NCBI GenBank assembly: GCA_029821635.1
Contig: JALGSW010000047.1
Location: forward strand, 5,026 to 69,025
Source of the DNA: Candidatus Zipacnadia bacterium
GTDB lineage: Bacteria; Armatimonadota; Zipacnadia; Zipacnadales; UBA5352
Length of the DNA stretch: 64,000 nt
Direction: 5' to 3'
Shown: positions 4,167 to 37,670 of the stretch, piece after piece
Position numbering within the stretch: the stretch's first letter is position 1
Layout: every line of letters begins with the position of its first letter
Made by a program: the position numbers and the translations under genes
The notes under the pieces: model-generated
Databases searched by the model: none
Told to the model about the DNA's origin: nothing
Seen by the model: the letters and a program-made list of their open reading frames with translations, nothing else

Positions 4167-5654
4167 ATGGCACATGGCAACATGGGGCGCTGGAGCGTTG
4201 CGCTGATGGTCGTGGCGATCTTGGGGACCGGCTGCTGTTGCGCATGGGCACAGGACGAGGACCCGGGGCTGACGAGTTTCAACCAGGGCGTTGCGGACTA
4301 CGAGGCCGGCCAGCTCGAGCAGGCGCGCGACGCCTTCGCGGCGGCGCTGCAGGCTCGGCCGGATGACCCGACGATCCTGGTCTGGCTCGGCTCCGTCTCC
4401 CTGCAACTGGGTGACACCGAGGCGGCCATCGCGAACCTGCGCAAGGCGATTGAACAGGACCCCGACTACGCGGTCAGCTACAACAACCTCGGAAACGCCT
4501 ACCTCGCGACGGGGGACCTCACGCGAGCCGAGGAGCAGTATGTGAGAGCCATGGAGTTGGACCCGCAGTACTTCGATGCGGAGTACAACCTCGCCAACCT
4601 CTACGCGCGGCAGAGCCAGTTCGAGAAGGCGTACAACGCCTACAACCGAGCATTGGAGATCGACCCCAACGACTTCGAAGCGCACGTCTCCTTCGGCCAC
4701 GCACTGCGCAAGGCGAGCGATCCGAAGGCCCTGCGCGAGTTCGAAGCCGCGCGTGACCTCAACCCACAGGACGCCCCGGTGCAGACGGTCCTCGGCACGC
4801 TCTACGTCAAGGCGGGCCAGTGGGATGACGCGATCGCGGCCTACGAAGCGGCGCTGGCGGTCGATCAGGAGATCGTCGAGGCGCACGTGGGCATCGGGCT
4901 CGCGCTCTACAACACCGGCGAGTACCAGGCAGCGGCGCAGCACTGGTCCACGGCCGCGGCCCTCGACTCGACGAGCTTCGCCGCGCGCTACAACATGGGC
5001 CTGGCCTACGAGGCGCTGAAGGACTACGGGCAGGCCGCGAGCGCGTATGAGGCCGCGCTGCAGATCCGCCCCGATGACGCCAATACGCTCAACAACCTCG
5101 GCTCCGCGCTGCACGAGCAGGGCAAGTCCGAGGAGGCCGCGGGGTACTTCCGTCAGGCGATTGCGGCGAACCCCGACCTGCAGGTGGCGCACCTGAACCT
5201 GGCGCTGGCGCTGGAGGCGGCGGGCAATACGCAGGAGGCGCTCGCGCAGTGGCAGCAGGCCACCACGCGCTTCCCGGACGTGGCGGCGGCGCACTGCGGA
5301 CTGGCGAACCGCTACTACGGGCAGAAGGACTACGACCGGGCGCTCCCCGCCTACCTGCGCACGCTGGAACTGCAGCCGGACAACCTCGAGGCGCACAACA
5401 ACCTGGGGCTGATCTACTACCGCAAGGGCGAGCTTGCCGAGGCGGTCGTGCACTTCCGCGACGCGCTGCGCGTGAATCCGAACTACGTCTATGCGCTGAA
5501 CAACCTCGGGGTCGCGCTGGAGAAGCAGGACAAGCTGACTGAGGCGCTGGACCAGTACCGCAAGGCGCTGGAGATCGACCCGAGCTACGCGCCTGCGAAG
5601 AGCAACTTCGACCGCCTGGAGAAGAAGCTGGGCACAGGCGCGGCGACGGGCTAG
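4167..5654 (+). CDS. Secreted/lipoprotein-like tetratricopeptide (TPR) repeat protein
   Basis: Start moved to ATG 4167 (AAGGAG 10 nt upstream). Signal-like MAHGNMGRWSVALMVVAILGTGCCC, followed by about 13 tandem 34-aa TPR units (..A...Y..AL.L.P....A..NLG..). Confidence 0.8.
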   Translation: MAHGNMGRWSVALMVVAILGTGCCCAWAQDEDPGLTSFNQGVADYEAGQLEQARDAFAAALQARPDDPTILVWLGSVSLQLGDTEAAIANLRKAIEQDPDYAVSYNNLGNAYLATGDLTRAEEQYVRAMELDPQYFDAEYNLANLYARQSQFEKAYNAYNRALEIDPNDFEAHVSFGHALRKASDPKALREFEAARDLNPQDAPVQTVLGTLYVKAGQWDDAIAAYEAALAVDQEIVEAHVGIGLALYNTGEYQAAAQHWSTAAALDSTSFAARYNMGLAYEALKDYGQAASAYEAALQIRPDDANTLNNLGSALHEQGKSEEAAGYFRQAIAANPDLQVAHLNLALALEAAGNTQEALAQWQQATTRFPDVAAAHCGLANRYYGQKDYDRALPAYLRTLELQPDNLEAHNNLGLIYYRKGELAEAVVHFRDALRVNPNYVYALNNLGVALEKQDKLTEALDQYRKALEIDPSYAPAKSNFDRLEKKLGTGAATG

Positions 5655-27524: not shown

Positions 27525-28733
27525 TCAGGTCAGTACAACCTTCGCGAAGGTGCGCTTGCCCACCTGCAGGATATCTCCATCGGACACCTCTACGTTCGCG
27601 CCCTCGTCCTCGATCTTCTCGTCATTGAGCCGCACTGCGCCGCCGTGGATCAGCCGTCGCGCCTCGGAATTCGACGACGCGCCACCGCACGCGCGGACGA
27701 GCTTCACGACCCAGACGCGCCCGTCCTCCATGTCGCACGCCGCCACCGGTAGGTCGGGCATCTCCGACGGCTTCTCCCCGCGACTGAAGACTTGCTCAAA
27801 CTCGGCCTGCGCGGCATCGGCAGCCGCCTGGTCGTGGTAGCGCGCGATGATGCGCCGCGCAAGCTCCTTCTTCACTTCCATCGGGTGCCGCTCGCCCGCC
27901 TGCATTGCCCGGTCGATCCGCTCGGCGCCGTCGAAGCCCTCGTCGGTGAGCAGCGCGAAGTAGTGCGGCAGCACCTCGTCGGGGATCGACATGAGCTTGC
28001 CGAACATCTCCTGCGGCGGCTCGGTCACGCCGACGTAGTTACCCAGCGACTTGCTCATCTTCTCGGTGCCATCGGTGCCGACGAGCAGCGTCCACGTGGC
28101 GGCCACCTGCGGCGCCATCCCGTAGGCGCGCATGATGTCGCGGCCGACCAGCAGGTTGAAGAGCTGGTCGGTGCCGCCGACCTCGACGTCGGCCTTGACG
28201 GCCACCGAATCGTAGGCCTGCACGAGCGGGTAGAGCAGCTCGCGGATCGAGATCGGCTCCTCGGCGTCGTAGCGCTTGCGGAAGTCATCGCGCTCGAGCA
28301 TGCGCGCGAGCGTGTAGTGCGAGGCCAGGCGGATCATCCCGTCGCTGCCGAGGTCCTCGAGCCACTCGGAGTTGTAGCGCAGCTCGCAGGCGTCGATGTC
28401 GAGGATCTTCGCGGCCTGCTGGGCGAAGGTCCGGGCGTTGCTGTCGATCTCCTCGCGCGAGAGCATCGGGCGGGTCTTCGAGCGCCCGGACGGGTCGCCG
28501 ATGCGGGCGGTGAAGTCGCCGATGATGAAGACGACCTTGTGCCCGGCGTCCTGGAAGCGGCGCAGGCGCATCATCGGGACGGAGTGCCCGAGGTGCAGAT
28601 CGGGCGCGGTCGGGTCGGCGCCGTACTTGATGCGCAGCGGGCGTCCGAGCTTGAGCTTCTCCAGCAGCTCCTCGCGGGAGTGCACTTCCGACGCATCGCC
28701 GATGAGGTGCTCGAGTTGCTGTTCGGGGGTCAT
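27525..28733 (-). CDS. tyrS: Tyrosine--tRNA ligase (type 2, with C-terminal S4 domain)
   Basis: HLGH motif (PDLHLGHSVPM), KMSKS (KMSKSLGNYV), C-terminal S4-like RRLIHGGAVRLNDEKI. Confidence 0.93.
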   Translation of the reverse strand: MTPEQQLEHLIGDASEVHSREELLEKLKLGRPLRIKYGADPTAPDLHLGHSVPMMRLRRFQDAGHKVVFIIGDFTARIGDPSGRSKTRPMLSREEIDSNARTFAQQAAKILDIDACELRYNSEWLEDLGSDGMIRLASHYTLARMLERDDFRKRYDAEEPISIRELLYPLVQAYDSVAVKADVEVGGTDQLFNLLVGRDIMRAYGMAPQVAATWTLLVGTDGTEKMSKSLGNYVGVTEPPQEMFGKLMSIPDEVLPHYFALLTDEGFDGAERIDRAMQAGERHPMEVKKELARRIIARYHDQAAADAAQAEFEQVFSRGEKPSEMPDLPVAACDMEDGRVWVVKLVRACGGASSNSEARRLIHGGAVRLNDEKIEDEGANVEVSDGDILQVGKRTFAKVVLT

Positions 28734-31020: not shown

Positions 31021-31881
31021 CTACTGCGCGGGCAGCGGGACGATCAGGAAGCGAACCTGCATCGGCTCGCCGGTCGCCGGGTTGATCACCTCGAAGGTGA
31101 TCACCGCGGGCTGGCCGGTCGCGAAGACGGAGCCCTCGGGCACCGGCTCGATGATCGGCTGACCGATGCCGATGCCGACTGTGGGCCCCGGCTCGACGGT
31201 GATGACGTCGCCGCCGGCGATCGGAACTCCGGTAGCGGGTTCGCCGGTCCCGGTCTCGCCCGCGGGCGGCATCTCAACGGGCGTGATGATCGGGCCGGTC
31301 GTGCCGGTGTCGGGCTGGGTGGCAGGCTCCTCGCCCGTTCCAGGCTCGGCGGTGGCCGGCTCGCCGGTATCGGGCGCCGGACCGGTGAGGCTGATCGACG
31401 CCATCAGGTTGTCCGGCGAGAAGTTGCTGCCGGCCATCGGGAACGCGTAGATCTTCTTCTGCGTCCCGTCCGGGGTCTCGACGATCAGCGACGTGGCGTG
31501 CACCAACCACGCGGGCTGGCCGGTGATGGCCTCGCCCGAACGGGTGCTGACGCTCAGCGACGTGATCTTCCACTTCGGGTCCTCGGCGGTGCCGGTCTGC
31601 GACCAGTCCACGTTGATCGCGGCGATGTCGGTGGCGTTCACGCGGCGCTCATCGCCATCGACCTTGACCGCGATGTAGCCCCCATCGCGCAGACGCGAGC
31701 CGATCTCGGCGCCGTCAACGATTCCGAGCTGCGCGGTCAGGATGACGCCGGCGATCTGCTGGCCACCGCGGAGGGTCACGGTGCCCTCCAGCTTCGGGCC
31801 CATGAAGTCCTGGGCCAGCGCTCCGGTGGCGATCAGGCAGATCAGCAGGATGACCGCCGGCAGCGTGCTCGTGGTGCGCAT
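31021..31881 (-). CDS. Secreted hypothetical protein with Gly/Thr/Pro/Glu-rich linker
   Basis: MRTTSTLPAVILLICLIATGALAQD signal. ATG 31881 with GAGGTGA RBS (ORF track starts at GTG 31890). No recognisable domain. Confidence 0.6.
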   Translation of the reverse strand: MRTTSTLPAVILLICLIATGALAQDFMGPKLEGTVTLRGGQQIAGVILTAQLGIVDGAEIGSRLRDGGYIAVKVDGDERRVNATDIAAINVDWSQTGTAEDPKWKITSLSVSTRSGEAITGQPAWLVHATSLIVETPDGTQKKIYAFPMAGSNFSPDNLMASISLTGPAPDTGEPATAEPGTGEEPATQPDTGTTGPIITPVEMPPAGETGTGEPATGVPIAGGDVITVEPGPTVGIGIGQPIIEPVPEGSVFATGQPAVITFEVINPATGEPMQVRFLIVPLPAQ

Positions 31882-31962
31882 CTGACTCACCTCACTTGAC
31901 TTGCCTTGCTGCGTTCTGATGCTGCGTTCAAGGCGCGGGCGACCGTGCGGCCCGCCCCGCCG

Positions 31963-32952
31963 TCAGTGCCTCTTCCGCGCGACAAGCGTCTCTACGAAGG
32001 CCTCCAGGCGCAGCCGCGTGCGCGCATCCAGCCGCGCCGGACCCTCGCCCTCGATCGTGAGCACCGGCAGGTCGAGGTGCCTCTTGAGCAGCAGGTCCTG
32101 GATCTGCCGGAAGCAGAAGGCCTGCGTGTAGTGGATCAGCCCGTCGATCCCACGTAGATCGATCTGCCGCCGGATGTCCGCCAGCCGCCCGGCGAGCTGG
32201 TAGGGGTACGTGTAGCGCCGGTACTGCTCGAGCAGCCCGCAGTCGACCCAGTCGGCCATCGTGAACTGCCGCTGGATCTCGTTGAGCACCACGCGGGCGT
32301 CGAGGCCCTCGATGAACTCGTAAAGGTCGCTGTAGATGGTCGGCACGCCCGCGATCCCGATGCGGACGCTTGACTCACGAGGCGTACGCCCCCGCGTGGT
32401 GGCGAGGAACTCGTCCAGTTCGGCCTCGAATCGCTCCGGGCTACCGTTGAAATCGCTGCAACTGACCTGATGATAGTGGTTTTCCCGCCCGTTGACAAGG
32501 CCGTCGCGCCAGGTGAGGCGATCGAGCTCGGCGACCTTCGCGCGCAGCGGGCGCAGGCGTTCGCGCTGCGTCTCGGCCTCCGCCCAGCTCACGCCGAGGT
32601 GGTCGCAGAGGCGCTCGATCTGCACCCGCAGCAGCTCCTCATCGCGGTCGTAGGGGTAGGCGAAGGGGATGATGCGCACGTTTTCTTCGCTGAGCGTCTC
32701 GATCATCGCATGGGTCTGCGCGCAGTCGCCCTGAGTGACCGCGATCACGGTCGGGATACCCTCGCGCAGCGTGGCGGCGTAGATGCCCTTGATCCACGCG
32801 CAGGCGGTGCGCGGGTAGCCATCCACCTCGGCCTGCGCGACCATCCCGGCTGCGTCGGGGCTGGTGATGAAGATGTTGTTGAGGTCCACCGGCTCATGCC
32901 CGGCGGCGAGTATCACCTCAACAGGAATTGTGGTGGTCATCCCGATTCTCAT
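31963..32952 (-). CDS. 2-hydroxyacyl-CoA dehydratase family protein (HgdB/BcrC/BadD-like, single subunit)
   Basis: 330 aa from MRIGMTTTIPVEVILAAGHEPVDL.., with ..CAWIKG...TQGDCAQ.. and ..IHYTQAFCFRQIQ.. as in PF06050-type proteins. The 213-aa N-terminal extension in the ORF track is read-through of the repeat array and is rejected. Confidence 0.75.
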   Translation of the reverse strand: MRIGMTTTIPVEVILAAGHEPVDLNNIFITSPDAAGMVAQAEVDGYPRTACAWIKGIYAATLREGIPTVIAVTQGDCAQTHAMIETLSEENVRIIPFAYPYDRDEELLRVQIERLCDHLGVSWAEAETQRERLRPLRAKVAELDRLTWRDGLVNGRENHYHQVSCSDFNGSPERFEAELDEFLATTRGRTPRESSVRIGIAGVPTIYSDLYEFIEGLDARVVLNEIQRQFTMADWVDCGLLEQYRRYTYPYQLAGRLADIRRQIDLRGIDGLIHYTQAFCFRQIQDLLLKRHLDLPVLTIEGEGPARLDARTRLRLEAFVETLVARKRH

Positions 32953-32974
32953 GTGTGTGGTGTCTGTGACGATG

Positions 32975-33560
32975 ACAGCGCCTCCCCGGCCCTCGACGGC
33001 CCAACGGCGCCTCCCCCGCCCTCGTAAACGACACTCGGGCACCCCCTCCGTTCCGGAGGAGGGGACGTTTGCGGCTCGGACTTTCGATGCCCCACCGGCT
33101 TCCGTCTCCCCTCTCCGGCACGGAGAGGGGTGGCGACCGACGAGCCCCTGGCGAGGAGGTCGCCGGGGTGAGGCGTCGTGCGCCCAACAGCGCCTCGTAA
33201 ACGACACTTCGGGCACCCCCTCCGTTCCGGAGGGGGGGACGTTTGCGGCTCGGATTTTCGATGCCCCACCGGCTTCCGTCTCCCCTCTCCGGCACGGAGA
33301 GGGGTGGCGACCGACGAGCCCCTGGCGAGGAGGTCGCCGGGGTGAGGCGTCGTGCGCCCAACAGCGCCTCCCCTCTCCGGCACGGAGAGGGGTGGCGACC
33401 GACGAGCCCCTGGCGAGGAGGTCGCCGGGGTGAGGCGTCGTGCGCCCAACAGCGCCTCCCCCGCGGGCAACGCCGTCGTCGTTCTCCCCCTCTCCCGCTT
33501 TCGGCGCGCCGTTTGCGCCGACAGGGAGAGGGGGCCGGGGGGTGAGGCGAGCCGTGTCTG
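32975..33560. repeat. Tandem array of GC-rich palindromic repeats: two approximately 174-nt units (33023-33196, 33197-33370), an extra 89-nt subunit (33370-33458) and a terminal hairpin element (33459-33560)
   Basis: The 89-nt subunit CCCCTCTCCggcacGGAGAGGGGtGGCGACC...GGTCGCCggggtgaggcgtcgtgcgcccaacagcgcctc occurs 3 times, at 33108, 33282 and 33370. The two full units differ by about 3 substitutions/indels. Each subunit is built of perfect stems. Confidence 0.9.
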
Positions 33561-33587
33561 GCGCCGCTTCTCCATTCCCCGCCGTCC

Positions 33588-34472
33588 TCACTTCAGCCCC
33601 AGCACCTTGTGTATCTGCGGCATGACGCGCACGTCGCGCAGGCGCTTCATCGCGAGCGCGCGGAAGCGGATCAGCTCCAGCCCGCCGGGCGGTCGAGCGC
33701 CGCCGGAGGGCGTCACCGGCTGTATGAACACCGGGCAGGCGGGATCGACCGACGCGATCTGCGCGTAGACCTCCTCCAACTCCTCCTCGGTCGCCTGGTC
33801 GGTCACCACGATCTTCACGAAGGCGCGCTTGTACTGCGCCAGGCGCAGGAACTCGCGCCGGGCGTCGTCATCGAGCGGCCGGCCCATGGAGCTGTCGAGC
33901 TTGTAGTCGGCAGCCACCCAGTCGATCATCCCGAGGACCTTCTGCAAGTCGTCGGGGCGCTGACCGTTGGTCTCGAGCATGATCGGCAGGTCGAGCGGCC
34001 GGAGCGTCGCGGCGAGGGCGGAGACGTAGTCGGCATGCATGAGCGGCTCGCCGCCGGTGAGGGCGATCGAGTGGATCGCGCCCTCCTCGTCATGCTTGAG
34101 GATGCGCTTCACCGCACCCAGCACCTCATCGATTCCTGCGGGGTTCGCGATGCTGAAGCCGCGCACTCCGGGGCGCGCCTGGCACCAGACCTCCGCCGGC
34201 GGGTCATGCTGCGCCTCGGGCGTGTCGCACCACGGGCAACCGAGGTCGCAGCCGCAGAAGCGGATGAATATCTGCTGGAAGCCGGCGAACAGCGCCTCGC
34301 CCTGGATCGAGGTGAAGATCTCATACAGCGGCGCGCGCAGGCTCGTGTCAGCCTCGGCGGCGATACGGGCCTCCTCGCGCTCCTGCGCCGCGATCGCCTC
34401 GCGAGCGGCGCCGTAGGCGTTGGGGCCCTCTTCGGTGTTCGCCCCCGCAACCGACCTGTCTTCCTGTGTCAT
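33588..34472 (-). CDS. Radical SAM protein of the QueE (7-carboxy-7-deazaguanine synthase-like) family
   Basis: PLYEIFTSIQGEALFAGFQQIFIRFCGCDLGCPWCDT (CX3CX2C), TGGEPL, C-terminal VRVMPQIHKVLGLK as in QueE. Start trimmed to ATG 34472. Confidence 0.8.
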   Translation of the reverse strand: MTQEDRSVAGANTEEGPNAYGAAREAIAAQEREEARIAAEADTSLRAPLYEIFTSIQGEALFAGFQQIFIRFCGCDLGCPWCDTPEAQHDPPAEVWCQARPGVRGFSIANPAGIDEVLGAVKRILKHDEEGAIHSIALTGGEPLMHADYVSALAATLRPLDLPIMLETNGQRPDDLQKVLGMIDWVAADYKLDSSMGRPLDDDARREFLRLAQYKRAFVKIVVTDQATEEELEEVYAQIASVDPACPVFIQPVTPSGGARPPGGLELIRFRALAMKRLRDVRVMPQIHKVLGLK

Positions 34473-34476
34473 CGGG

Positions 34477-35043
34477 TCACTGAACCCCTCGGACTTTGCA
34501 GGTCGCAAGGTAGATGTCCTCGGCTTCCTCGGCGTATGCACCGAGCAACTCCTGTGCCAGCGCGTCCACGTCGATCCCCCACTCGCCCAGCCCGACCGCG
34601 GCCACCGGCGCTCCGCTCGCGTCCACGTTGATCCCGACATGGATCAGCGTCGAGACTGGCGATGCGGTCGCGATGGAGACGGTGAGCTTGCGCTCGTCCA
34701 CGTACAGGTCGTCGCCATCGCGCCGCAGGACCGGCACCCCCGGCGTCCGCTGGAGGCGCTCGGCGATCGTGCAGATCAGCAGCCGCTGGCGCAGGACCGC
34801 GCGGATCAGGTCGCGGTCGAAGTGCTCCGCGATCAGGTGCAGCATCTCCGCCGCGCGAATGTCCTTGCCGGCGAGCACGTCCTCGCGGTCCACCATCTCG
34901 CTGAGCTCAACGCGGCATGGCCCACGGAAGGCCACGATCACGTCGCCCTGGATGCCGAAGGTCTCGTAGATCCAGTGCGAGCGGAGTTGGTGGCCGGTGT
35001 AGCCGAGTTGCTCTGAGTGGAAGACGGTGCGCATGGCTCGCAT
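34477..35043 (-). CDS. DUF366-family protein
   Basis: 188 aa. MRAMRTVFHSEQLGYTGHQLRSHWIYETFGIQGDVIVAFRGPCRV... resembles the DUF366 (PF04017) family as I recall it. Stop lies 4 nt before the radical SAM start. Confidence 0.6.
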   Translation of the reverse strand: MRAMRTVFHSEQLGYTGHQLRSHWIYETFGIQGDVIVAFRGPCRVELSEMVDREDVLAGKDIRAAEMLHLIAEHFDRDLIRAVLRQRLLICTIAERLQRTPGVPVLRRDGDDLYVDERKLTVSIATASPVSTLIHVGINVDASGAPVAAVGLGEWGIDVDALAQELLGAYAEEAEDIYLATCKVRGVQ

Positions 35044-35096
35044 GTTCCCCGTGAGCGCGACGTGCTGCCATGATAGGCGGGAGGCGGCGTGGCGTC

Positions 35097-35200
35097 AACC
35101 GTGACGGCGCCTCACCCCCCCGCCCCCCCTCTCCCTGGCTCGCTGCGCTCGCAAGGGGGAGAGGGGGGAGAACGGCACGGCGGCGTGTTGGCGGAGGTCC
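35097..35200. repeat. Single REP-like hairpin element, related to and inverted relative to 33459-33560
   Basis: gcgcctcaccccc + CCCCCCTCTCCC (35124-35135) / GGGAGAGGGGGG (35157-35168) + gagaacggcacggcggcgtgttg. The reverse complement of 33459-33560 has the same flanks and stem with a different loop. Confidence 0.8.
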
Positions 35201-35261
35201 GGGCGTTCGTGAGGCGGAACAGGCCCGGCAGGACCGCACCGTGACCGACGGGAGGACGTTC

Positions 35262-37670
35262 ATGAAGCTCGACGCGCGGTGGATCTGGATCGAGGAGGAA
35301 TACGCGAACTCATACTGCCACCTCCGCCGCACCTTCGAGGTCGGCGAGGTGGCGATGAAGGCGACGCTGCGCATCAGCGCGGATACCAGCTACGCGGTGT
35401 GGGTGAACGGACGCTACGTGGGCCGCGGTCCGGGTCCCTACGTCTACGAGACTCGGCCGGTGGACGCCTACGACCTGACCGACCTGCTGCAGCCCGGCGC
35501 GAACGTCGTCTGCGTGCTCGGACACTGGTGGGGCGTGAAGTCGCACTCGCGGCCGCTGGGCAGCCCCGGCGTCATTGCCGAGCTGCGGTGGGAGGACGCC
35601 GACGGCGCGGCGCACTCGGTCGGCACCGACGAGAGTTGGCGCGCGCTGCCGTCCGAGGCATGGGCGCGCGAGGTGCCACGCCGCAGCGGCGCGGTCGCGT
35701 GGACTGAGTACTTCGACGCGCGCAAGGAGCCGCCGGGCTGGCTGGCGCCGGACTTCGACGACTCGGCCTGGGAGGCCGCGCGAGCGATCGATCTGCCGGA
35801 TCGGAAGCTCTTCGCACGACGCCGGCCGCTGCTGGCGGAGTGGCACGTGGGGCCTGTGTCGATCGCCGGCGCGTGGTGGGCGGGCGCGGAGAGCCCGGAG
35901 CTGGGGGACGAGCCTGAGCTGACCGAGTTCCTCGACGAAGAGCCGCTGGAGCCCGTGGACGAGGCGCTGCACGCGGAACTCGCGACGGGACTTATCGGCG
36001 AGGGCCCGCTGACGCTGGAGCTGCCCGCCGACCGGGGGCTCGCGGTGACGCTTGATCTCGGGCGGGAGATCGTCGGCCACCTCGCGCTCGACGTGGACGT
36101 CCCGGCGGGCGCGACGATCGAGCTGTCCCCCGCGGAGCTGATGCGCGACGGCCGCCCGTGGTGCTTCCGCAAGGGCTGCAGGTACGGGCAGCGCTACATC
36201 ACCCGCGAGGGCCGGCAGACGTGGCGGACCTACGCCTGGCACGGGCTGCGCTACGTTCACGTGGTGTTGCGCGGCTTCGACGGCCCGCGGGCACGCCCGG
36301 TGACGATCCACCGCCTTGGCGCGGTGCGGCGCGAAGCGGACCTCGACTGGCGCGCAAGCCTGGTGACCACCGATGAGGAGCTGCAGCAGGCCTGGGACAT
36401 CACCGTGCACACGCTGCGCGTGGGGACGCAGGAGGTGCACGTGGACTGCCCCACGCGCGAGCAGGCGGCGTACTGGGGGGACGCAACCTGGATCGGCCTC
36501 TGGACGCTGGCGATGACCGGCGACTGTACCCACCTGCGACACCTGCTGCTCTCCGCCGAACCGGCGCAGTATGAGAATGGGCAGCTTCCGGCCTCAATCT
36601 TCTCCAGCCTCGATCAGATTCTGCTTGACTACACGCTGATCATGCCGTGGGCGCTGCGCGACTGGTGGTGGCAGACGGGCGACCTCGCGGTGCCGCAGAG
36701 GCTGGGCGGCGTGGTGCAGCGGCTGCTCGACTGGTACCGCGAGCGCATGGGCGCGACGGGCCTGCTGGAGATCGACGCGATCGCGATGCGCGCGAGCGGC
36801 GAGGCGACGCTGTTCATCGACCACCCCGGGCTGGGCTGGCACAACTTCCCGCACCCGGGCCTCGATCGGCGCGGGATCAGCGCGGGCCTGAACCTGTTCA
36901 TGCTGCGCGCGCTCCAGTGCGATGCGGAGCTGGCCGAGGCGCTCGGCGACAACGCTCGCGCGCATCACGTGCGCGGCGAGGCGGAGGCGCTGGCGCTGAA
37001 CATCGAGCGCACGTTCTTCGACGTGCAGCGCGGCGTCTACGCGGACGCGCTCGTGGAGGGCGAGCTGTCGTCGCAGGTGAGCCAGCAGATCAACGCGCTG
37101 GCGGTGGTGACGGGGGTCTGCCCGCCGGAGCGGCGCAGGCGGCTGCTCGAGACGGTGCTCTCCGACGACCCGGAGTTGTGCCGCTGCAGCCCCTACGCGT
37201 GGGTGTACCTCTTCCGGGCGCTGTCGCTGGCGGGGATGGAGGCGGAGATGCTCGGCGCCATCCGCACGCTCTGGGGCGGGATGGCGCGGGCGGGCGCGAC
37301 GACGTGGTGGGAGACCTTCGGCGGCGATGAGCTCGACAGCCTCTGCCACGCGTGGTCCGCCGTTCCGGGCGCGATCCTGCAGGATCACCTGCTGGGCGTG
37401 CGCGCGGCTGCGCCGGGCTTCACGCGGGCGCTGATCGCTCCACGGCCGGACCTCGTGGCGCAGGCGTCCGGCACCGTGCAGACGGTGCGCGGGGAGGTCG
37501 CGGTGGGCTGGCAGGCGGATGGTGAGGGCGGCGTGGAGGTGGCGGTGGGGCTGCCCGAGGGCGTCGCAGGGGAGCTGCAGCCGCCGCCGGGTTGGCGGAT
37601 GGATGGCGCAGCGGGTGCGCTTGAGATGCTCGAAGGCACGTCCGCGCGCGTGCGCTTCGTACGTGTGTGA
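35262..37670 (+). CDS. GH78-like alpha-L-rhamnosidase family protein (six-hairpin glycosidase)
   Basis: MKLDARWIWIEE..., VWVNGRYVGRGP, TQEVHVDCPTREQAAYWGDA, WWETF...SLCHAWSA are characteristic of bacterial alpha-L-rhamnosidase-like proteins. ATG 35262 after GGGAGGA. Confidence 0.75.
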   Translation: MKLDARWIWIEEEYANSYCHLRRTFEVGEVAMKATLRISADTSYAVWVNGRYVGRGPGPYVYETRPVDAYDLTDLLQPGANVVCVLGHWWGVKSHSRPLGSPGVIAELRWEDADGAAHSVGTDESWRALPSEAWAREVPRRSGAVAWTEYFDARKEPPGWLAPDFDDSAWEAARAIDLPDRKLFARRRPLLAEWHVGPVSIAGAWWAGAESPELGDEPELTEFLDEEPLEPVDEALHAELATGLIGEGPLTLELPADRGLAVTLDLGREIVGHLALDVDVPAGATIELSPAELMRDGRPWCFRKGCRYGQRYITREGRQTWRTYAWHGLRYVHVVLRGFDGPRARPVTIHRLGAVRREADLDWRASLVTTDEELQQAWDITVHTLRVGTQEVHVDCPTREQAAYWGDATWIGLWTLAMTGDCTHLRHLLLSAEPAQYENGQLPASIFSSLDQILLDYTLIMPWALRDWWWQTGDLAVPQRLGGVVQRLLDWYRERMGATGLLEIDAIAMRASGEATLFIDHPGLGWHNFPHPGLDRRGISAGLNLFMLRALQCDAELAEALGDNARAHHVRGEAEALALNIERTFFDVQRGVYADALVEGELSSQVSQQINALAVVTGVCPPERRRRLLETVLSDDPELCRCSPYAWVYLFRALSLAGMEAEMLGAIRTLWGGMARAGATTWWETFGGDELDSLCHAWSAVPGAILQDHLLGVRAAAPGFTRALIAPRPDLVAQASGTVQTVRGEVAVGWQADGEGGVEVAVGLPEGVAGELQPPPGWRMDGAAGALEMLEGTSARVRFVRV

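Follow-up and report, generated by a model that had tools for sequence, protein, structure and literature searches.

We examined a putative three-gene operon on the minus strand of a 64,000-nucleotide stretch of DNA (the window; positions 5,026 to 69,025 of contig JALGSW010000047.1, assembly GCA_029821635.1) from Candidatus Zipacnadia bacterium. The best explanation for the three genes is that they encode QueE and two uncharacterised, non-canonical components of queuosine-precursor synthesis, a DUF366 protein and a short iron-sulfur (Fe-S) protein of the HGD-D family. It appears reasonably likely that all three proteins are components of preQ1 synthesis, with the remaining que genes scattered over the genome. 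With a chance that we put only slightly above even, the short HGD-D protein would be an ATP-activated Fe-S reductase that converts preQ0 to preQ1 and replaces QueF; this proposal comes from a phyletic gap combined with the chemistry of the family. The three genes and the basis of their assignment are as follows.

34477..35043, minus strand: DUF366 protein of 188 amino acids (aa) with a biotin/lipoate-ligase fold (PF04017, match to 2DDZ, AlphaFold2 (AF2) model and Foldseek, gene context)
33588..34472, minus strand: QueE-type radical S-adenosylmethionine (SAM) enzyme of 294 aa (PF04055, QueE motifs, PDB matches, gene context)
31963..32952, minus strand: short single-subunit Fe-S protein of the HGD-D family, 329 aa, candidate preQ0 reductase (PF06050, AF2 model and Foldseek, context, phyletic pattern)

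QueE and the other queuosine genes of the genome

The window is part of contig C87 of a 5.0-Mb Armatimonadota metagenome-assembled genome (MAG), which has ∼70% G+C and is 87.5% complete. Open reading frame (ORF) calling returned the three minus-strand ORFs at 34477-35043, 33588-34472, and 31963-32952 and confirmed the 4-nt junction between the DUF366 and radical SAM genes, in agreement with an initial annotation of the window made from the sequence alone. The family assignments given there were confirmed by Pfam scores: 222.6 bits for DUF366 against PF04017 (cut-off 29.9, profile positions 1-184 of 184), 45.2 bits for the radical SAM protein against PF04055, and 108.5 bits for the HGD-D protein against PF06050 (cut-off 28.4, profile positions 2-342). 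Gene callers start DUF366 at Met4, which gives a protein of 185 aa. The three genes had also been proposed to form one unit, and the trio indeed recurs across relatives in a genome-neighborhood check. The order DUF366-radical SAM-HGD-D was kept in all relatives down to ∼55% protein identity, even at loci with rearranged or different flanking genes. The HGD-D gene was present in 45 of 45 sampled genomes of the window's order, and DUF366 was located beside it in all 12 genomes of that order checked for both. This conservation is well beyond chance. DUF366 and the lone HgdB-like (HGD-D) protein are uncharacterised, as first described.

The identification of the radical SAM protein as QueE, the 7-carboxy-7-deazaguanine synthase, is solid at the level of sequence, from which its catalysis is predicted. 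The protein contains FCGCDLGCPWCDT with the CX3CX2C cluster motif (CDLGCPWC in the translation), and the GGE motif for SAM binding is read from the translation as TGGEP/LTGGEP. Behind a low-complexity N-terminal extension of ∼45 aa, the stretch YEIFTSIQGEA aligns with the same stretch in QueE of E. coli and B. multivorans; the N-terminal motif E-I-F-x-S-x-Q-G-E-G, which we take to be the substrate-binding motif of QueE structures, is present except that the last Gly is Ala. The only significant solved relatives are the QueE structures 6NHL, 4NJG, and 5TGS, in alignments that span both the N-terminal motif (EIFxSxQGE) and the cluster motif. Orthologues of the radical SAM gene were found in the arrangement queD-queC-DUF366-queE-folE in Pelotomaculum and also in further Armatimonadota, as DUF366-queE-folE in Heliomicrobium, and also in queD-queE operons. 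No second QueE was detected in the genome by tblastn with six QueE-type queries; a weak match on contig C146 was rejected as an AmmeMemoRadiSam/PflA-like radical SAM protein.

The absence of queC, queD, folE, and an activase gene from the window, pointed out in the initial annotation, extends to the remainder of its contig. Elsewhere in the genome we located queD-queC on contig C93, queA followed by a canonical tgt on contig C105, and queH on contig C53. The Tgt motifs are of the canonical bacterial preQ1 type, and a search for a divergent, preQ0-accepting Tgt found none. There is no QueF (PF14489) anywhere in the genome. No type I GTP cyclohydrolase FolE was found in the whole genome by tblastn with Armatimonadota and Firmicutes FolE queries; the organism may rely on FolE2, or FolE may be encoded in the 12% of the genome that the MAG does not cover. 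Since the radical SAM protein is of the QueE type and the sole candidate, with queC, queD, and other que genes elsewhere in the genome, we concluded that it serves the ordinary preQ0 pathway. A QueE-type protein in a genome with queC/queD elsewhere is what the initial annotation itself had named as refuting a separate radical-chemistry pathway for the trio, and that reading fails. Nor can the operon be set apart from the canonical preQ0 route as had been thought, for DUF366 and the HgdB-like gene are both found within preQ0 operons of other lineages.

DUF366 and the variant QueC

DUF366 belongs to the preQ0 pathway, an assignment that is well supported by gene context. Among 151 Armatimonadota genomes the gene was detected in 24, and members of three phyla (Bacillota, Armatimonadota, and Bdellovibrionota) have it next to queC, queE, or both. 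At the inspected Armatimonadota loci it is located beside queC/queE or within ∼2 kb of queE; the exception is genome G032, in which no que gene was found beside DUF366. The presence of DUF366 is also reflected in the type of QueC. In all 24 DUF366-positive genomes QueC scored 161-191 bits against PF06508, whereas in DUF366-free genomes it always reached at least 196 bits. The alignment (10 vs. 7 sequences) showed the motif GFNxEEAxTFPDNS in QueC of genomes with DUF366 and DYSGYPDCR in those without. Because of this context and the split in QueC type, we assign DUF366 to preQ0 synthesis, where it goes together with a variant QueC and is probably the partner of this FPDN-type enzyme. A role of DUF366 as a replacement for QueF was rejected, since family f21 possesses both DUF366 and QueF.

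The fold of DUF366 gives some hints of its biochemistry. The protein matched PDB entry 2DDZ with E = 6e-39, and its AF2 model (predicted local distance difference test score, pLDDT, 95) superposes on 2DDZ with a template modeling (TM) score of 0.93. The next best Foldseek matches of the model were BirA/LplA (E = 1e-7 to 1e-5, TM 0.5-0.64, probability 1.00). The sole Pfam match is PF04017, with none to PF03099, and the glycine-rich biotin/ATP loop GRGRxGR is not among the conserved columns. In a weak profile comparison, the invariant GDDLYxxxRKLSVS of DUF366 aligned with PNDVLLAGRKVAGV in the genome's own BirA, lysine on lysine, which places the invariant K119 opposite the lysine of BirA RK(V)AG (hhalign probability only 21%, E = 0.001). 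Going by the modeled fold, one might guess that DUF366 binds or adenylates the carboxylate of 7-carboxy-7-deazaguanine (CDG). A literature search on DUF366, PF04017, and COG2029 returned nothing relevant beyond a self-interaction entry for PH0223.

Three DUF366 loci carry additional features. In genome G133 (locus L041, 4713-6020) a PaaK-like AMP-forming ligase is encoded between DUF366 and queE. In family f21 (G030, locus L042, 4104-5216) a GATase1/Peptidase_C26-DUF488 fusion follows queE. The DUF366 protein of G032 (locus L040, 5292-6491) has a 200-aa N-terminal extension.

The short HGD-D protein and the step from preQ0 to preQ1

The link between the HGD-D protein and the queuosine pathway is well supported, both by gene order and by phyletic pattern. 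In three families without DUF366 the HGD-D gene comes directly after que genes: after queD-queE in f25 and f10, and after queD in f6. Among 80 metagenome loci with the short HGD-D gene (37-70% G+C; protein identity 51-80%, all but one 51-63%), que genes were found beside it at 17: queD-queE, DUF366-queE, or queE alone was located directly upstream at 16, and queE-queC was upstream at one further locus. DUF366 and HGD-D are thus tied to preQ0 genes independently, because each occurs there without the other.

The phyletic pattern was examined in a first panel of 55 Armatimonadota genomes and in an enlarged sample of 401 genomes of the same phylum, with carriers of the short HGD-D gene scored by profile A2 (nearly all at 400 bits or more). 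QueA was present in 54 and QueC in 43 of the panel genomes, and every genome with QueA also had QueG or QueH. All 20 carriers in the panel had QueC and QueA plus QueG or QueH, and none had QueF; among the other 23 QueC-positive genomes, QueF was present in 15 (p = 3e-6 vs. carriers). In the enlarged sample, the 80 genomes with short HGD-D and the 176 with QueF have no member in common (Fisher p = 6e-24). The 13 families with short HGD-D and the 18 with QueF do not overlap either (p = 0.0016), so that mutual exclusion has no exception in 256 genomes across 31 families. Epoxyqueuosine reduction in carriers is served by QueG (f25, f10) or QueH (the window's order). QueA requires the amine of preQ1. 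Since QueC, QueA, and QueG or QueH are present in carriers and Tgt of the window's genome is canonical, the only step left unfilled is the conversion of preQ0 to preQ1. Two other substitutions by the HGD-D protein were rejected: that of epoxyqueuosine reductase, as QueG or QueH is present in every carrier, and that of QueC, which is found in 20 of 20 carriers.

The genome contains no HGD-D gene besides the short one, and the protein was encoded by a single gene in all 80 metagenome loci. Its AF2 model (pLDDT 90) had only DCCP, HadB/HadC, BzdNO, and MbdON as Foldseek neighbors (TM 0.68-0.76). In an alignment of 17 sequences from several families, the only invariant cysteines were C51, C77, and C280, and the mean column identity was 66%; such high conservation fits one fixed substrate. 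No CoA-transferase or fermentation genes were found in ∼110 short HGD-D loci inspected. The branch is large: more than 500 loci of it are found in metagenomes, and databases contain more than 7,900 of its proteins, currently annotated as '2-hydroxyacyl-CoA dehydratase family protein'. A literature search combining QueF or preQ0 with HGD-type proteins found no linking paper.

The ATPase activator that such proteins usually require was noted as missing from the window in the initial annotation. There is indeed none nearby, yet a genome-wide search detected an orphan HgdC-type activase of 271 aa with both cluster Cys motifs on contig C76 (10615-11430). An HgdC-type activase was present in all 20 carriers examined, and in 19 of them it was an orphan with no adjoining HGD-D gene; the exception is G092, in which it is located between long HGD-D genes. 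The stand-alone activases of non-carriers always adjoin another HGD-type gene. In ∼35 of the 80 metagenome loci the activase gene is directly downstream of short HGD-D.

We propose the following pathway. QueE would convert 6-carboxy-tetrahydropterin (CPH4) to CDG, and the variant QueC together with DUF366 would carry CDG through the 7-amido intermediate ADG to preQ0. The HGD-D protein is envisaged as a homomer whose [4Fe-4S] cluster has three Cys ligands and leaves one iron site open; as in its relatives, an HgdC-type ATPase, here the orphan on C76, would be the electron source. The activase, reduced by ferredoxin or flavodoxin, would hydrolyze ATP to drive a low-potential electron into the [4Fe-4S] cluster; the nitrile nitrogen of preQ0 would bind the cysteine-free iron, and four successive transfers of an electron and a proton would yield the aminomethyl group of preQ1. 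Canonical Tgt would then insert preQ1, and QueA and QueH would complete the maturation. Nitrile reduction of this kind would resemble the chemistry of DCCP, which, aided by its ATPase, reduces the triple bond of acetylene and also binds cyanide (PMC7317905).

Other features of the activase and HGD-D loci were recorded along the way. The C76 activase gene is two genes away from the genome's true BirA gene (C76:12325-13068), and in family f3 (genomes G122, G080, G027, and G113) a distance of 5-7 kb separates the orphan activase from queH. Contig C18 (6513-10181) encodes a protein of at least 1222 aa, ending at the contig edge, that fuses a double activase to DUF2229; full-length double-activase/DUF2229 fusions of 1355-1508 aa are encoded in 28 of the 55 panel genomes. 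In Sporomusa carbonis CP155570.1 (locus L136, 7713-13790; also L137) the short HGD-D gene is part of a tight block between murI and rph-rdgB, and the block in Sporomusaceae reads: a 180-aa gene, a CofE-like gene (PF01996), short HGD-D, activase, a hydantoinase-A-like gene, and an HDAC-like gene. At metagenome locus L071 and 10-11 similar loci, short HGD-D overlaps an upstream gene of 369 aa, DUF2229-like by a look at the sequence only, and an RtcA-like (RNA 3'-phosphate cyclase) gene begins within 0-21 nt after HGD-D, with no small activase adjoining. The tRNA genes near HGD-D/activase pairs, checked as a possible clue, were those for Gly, Arg, and Pro, none of them queuosine-bearing.

Several observations weigh against QueE, DUF366, and an HGD-D-type QueF substitute acting together in preQ1 synthesis. 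The radical SAM protein is below the cut-off of all five NCBIfam QueE models (39-69 bits vs. 200-300); its top NCBIfam matches are nevertheless QueE models, the best being TIGR03963 at 69.3 bits vs. a cut-off of 260, and these equivalog models are subfamily-specific. Between queE and the HGD-D gene the window has 635 nt of repeat, which makes their co-transcription here uncertain. The anti-correlation with QueF was drawn from one phylum, whose related genomes are non-independent observations. Eight of the 43 QueC-positive panel genomes (family f27, G020, and G021) lack both QueF and HGD-D, so that the absence of QueF alone does not demand the HGD-D protein, and the queC neighborhoods of these eight contained no recurrent alternative candidate. 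In Sporomusaceae (Sporomusa and Propionispora), the HGD-D/activase pair has CofE-like, hydantoinase-like, and HDAC-like neighbors close to murI and rph but no que gene in the vicinity, and beside short HGD-D of other lineages RtcA or a DUF2229-like gene is found. At gathering score, neither a preQ1 riboswitch nor another Rfam element was found near the operon in the window, in 6 loci from relatives or chosen for comparison, or in 33 metagenome loci.

Part of this evidence would suit an HGD-D/activase pair that is a piece of anaerobe housekeeping unrelated to queuosine, with the que context and the anti-correlation as accidents of lineage. The pair adjoins murI, rph, rdgB, CofE-like, hydantoinase-like, or RtcA genes, with no que gene nearby, in Sporomusaceae and at many metagenome loci; the eight genomes that manage without QueF and without the pair, and the missing riboswitch in the sources scanned, point the same way. 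We regard this explanation as quite unlikely, however, given that several independent gene orders (DUF366-queE-X, queD-queE-X, queD-X, and queE-queC-X, where X is the HGD-D gene) were found with varying flanking genes, that the mutual exclusion with QueF has zero exceptions, and that the protein is highly conserved, with 51-63% identity across phyla besides the 66% mean column identity. A role within the queuosine pathway other than preQ0 reduction, as electron donor to QueE, QueH, or QueG or as reducer of tRNA-bound preQ0, is also unlikely. Electron injection is a known property of the HGD-D family, the gene clusters with queD/queE and not with tgt or queA, and other lineages have RNA-related genes as its neighbors (those of RNase PH, RtcA, tyrosyl-tRNA synthetase, tryptophanyl-tRNA synthetase). 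Yet all genomes that have QueF and lack the HGD-D protein also possess QueE and QueG/QueH, and a helper of QueE, QueG, or QueH is disfavored because it would not anti-correlate with QueF specifically. The use of either QueG or QueH by carriers means that HGD-D is not tied to one epoxyqueuosine reductase, and the canonical preQ1-type motifs of Tgt in this genome make reduction after Tgt less likely, although preQ0 may conceivably be reduced on tRNA.

The self-contained radical pathway first suggested, with a product distinct from preQ0 and preQ1, we consider highly improbable. The unmet NCBIfam equivalog cut-offs for QueE, the two uncharacterised proteins among the three, and the location of the other que genes outside the window could be read in its favor. 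Against it stand the presence of queD-queC, queA-tgt, and queH in a genome with no other QueE, the occurrence of DUF366 and HGD-D separately within ordinary preQ0 operons, and the fact that DUF366 occurs without HGD-D and vice versa.

We return to the proposed replacement of QueF by short HGD-D. A wider reading, which we advance tentatively and would not call probable as a whole, has the operon close two gaps in the textbook queuosine pathway and joins a minimal, homomeric 3-Cys [4Fe-4S] HGD-D preQ0 reductase in many anaerobes and microaerobes with a two-protein preQ0 synthase (variant QueC plus DUF366) in archaea and many bacteria. As parts of that joint reading, the HGD-D protein would represent the first nitrile reductase of the Fe-S type, the QueF reaction would have been solved a second time by an unrelated enzyme, and DUF366 would be a stripped-down subunit of biotin-ligase fold that activates the CDG carboxylate. 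If true, an unrelated, ATP-driven Fe-S route to preQ1 would explain queuosine in many QueF-less bacteria, the large orphan branch of short HGD-D proteins would gain its first physiological substrate, and archerase-dependent chemistry would be extended to C-N triple bonds. DUF366 would become the fifth component of a preQ0 pathway thought to need four enzymes. A systematic mis-annotation would also be corrected, and queuosine autotrophy could be better predicted from genomes. The QueF-substitute reading is new relative to the searchable literature, and the cultured carriers of the short HGD-D/activase pair, Sporomusa and Propionispora, make it directly testable.

Flanking features and comparison with known systems

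Three further features of the region were annotated.

35070..35098, minus strand: promoter-like match TTGACG-17-TATCAT from a consensus scan, 27 nt before the start of DUF366
32953..33587, no strand: spacer of G+C-rich hairpin repeat (Tandem Repeats Finder (TRF), blastn)
31021..31890, minus strand: secreted protein, conserved downstream neighbor (no Pfam match; conserved in near relatives)

The sigma-70-like consensus scan gave 3 sites in the region vs. 0.1 expected; these are pattern matches only, and the promoter is putative. The 635-nt gap between the radical SAM and HGD-D genes is occupied by a dispersed repeat, with ∼2.5 copies of a 174-bp unit (in tandem at 33020-33461) and ∼4 copies of an 88-bp sub-unit detected by TRF. 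Related copies were found by blastn on at least 22 contigs of the genome, and the G+C-rich repeat also occurs at window positions 35044-35330. Its hairpins are CCCCTCTCCG-TGC-CGGAGAGGGG and CCCCCTCCGGAACGGAGGGGG. The element looks like a repetitive extragenic palindromic (REP) or miniature inverted-repeat transposable element (MITE)-like repeat that has expanded within the operon spacer. Because the corresponding gap in relatives is only 8-300 nt (8-70 nt in most), the spacer is taken as a recent insertion. A 542-aa ORF at 31963-33591 is considered spurious, since in this genome of 70% G+C it reads through the repeat spacer.

The secreted protein encoded downstream (31021-31890) has a signal peptide, a conserved N-terminal domain of 170 aa, and a Pro/Thr/Gly/Glu-rich tail. 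In every near relative inspected, and at 8 metagenome loci, its gene comes after that of the HGD-D protein, and it is absent from the queD-queE-HGD-D loci of other families; the protein is probably outside the pathway. Across the order, a tyrosyl-tRNA synthetase gene (window 27525-28733, minus strand) is found at a distance of 1-3 genes downstream of the trio; in G032 it is the immediate neighbor of the HGD-D gene, and a gene resembling tryptophanyl-tRNA synthetase is nearby in G144. tRNA-Tyr bears queuosine, and the proximity of the synthetase to the trio may be plain synteny.

QueF is the NADPH-dependent 7-cyano-7-deazaguanine reductase (EC 1.7.1.13, PF14489), a cofactor-free T-fold enzyme that works through a covalent thioimide with 2 NADPH and is often encoded in que operons. 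To our knowledge, no other biological nitrile reductase is known, and QueF is regarded as universal for the formation of preQ1. The short HGD-D protein is proposed for the same reaction and pathway slot, with no relation in sequence or fold; it is an Fe-S protein and presumably depends on an ATPase activator and a low-potential donor. It would therefore be a functional analogue and not a family member of QueF. Compared to the canonical FolE-QueD-QueE-QueC-QueF pathway, QueF is absent here and the variant QueC always occurs with DUF366. The canonical preQ1 pathway of Bacillus subtilis (queCDEF) shares QueD, QueE, QueC, Tgt, QueA, QueH, and the end product with the system described here, in which the genes are spread over at least five loci and no preQ1 riboswitch was found.

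Among Fe-S enzymes, HadBC/HadI, HgdAB/HgdC, BzdNO, and MbdON have the same fold and PF06050 domain as the short HGD-D protein, and these dehydratases and benzoyl-CoA reductases share with it an HgdC-type ATPase partner. Dehydratase subunits such as HadBC bind a 3-Cys [4Fe-4S] cluster with one free iron (PMC7317905), a pattern matched by the three cysteines of short HGD-D. The latter is encoded by one gene instead of an alpha/beta pair and is shorter (329 aa vs. 373-438 aa in dehydratases and benzoyl-CoA reductases). Its context is 7-deazaguanine synthesis and, unlike that of 2-hydroxyacyl-CoA dehydratases, is free of CoA-transferase and acyl-CoA genes. DCCP/DCCP-R of Carboxydothermus hydrogenoformans (6ENO, 7YYL) is the best structural match (E = 7.5e-12) and the only PDB match at the sequence level, and it resembles short HGD-D in being homomeric with a dedicated ATPase. 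DCCP has a 7-Cys motif, with six ligands of an [8Fe-9S] cluster (PMC7317905), whereas short HGD-D has three invariant cysteines and scores 33.4 bits against NF040772 (cut-off 350).

For DUF366, the closest solved structure is PH0223 of Pyrococcus horikoshii (2DDZ), with 41-42% identity and a TM score of 0.93. BirA/LplA share with DUF366 the core fold and may share the ...DD(L/V)...RK(L/V)... lysine motif, whereas DUF366 differs from them in having no PF03099 match, no GRGRxGR loop, and no acceptor-protein domain.

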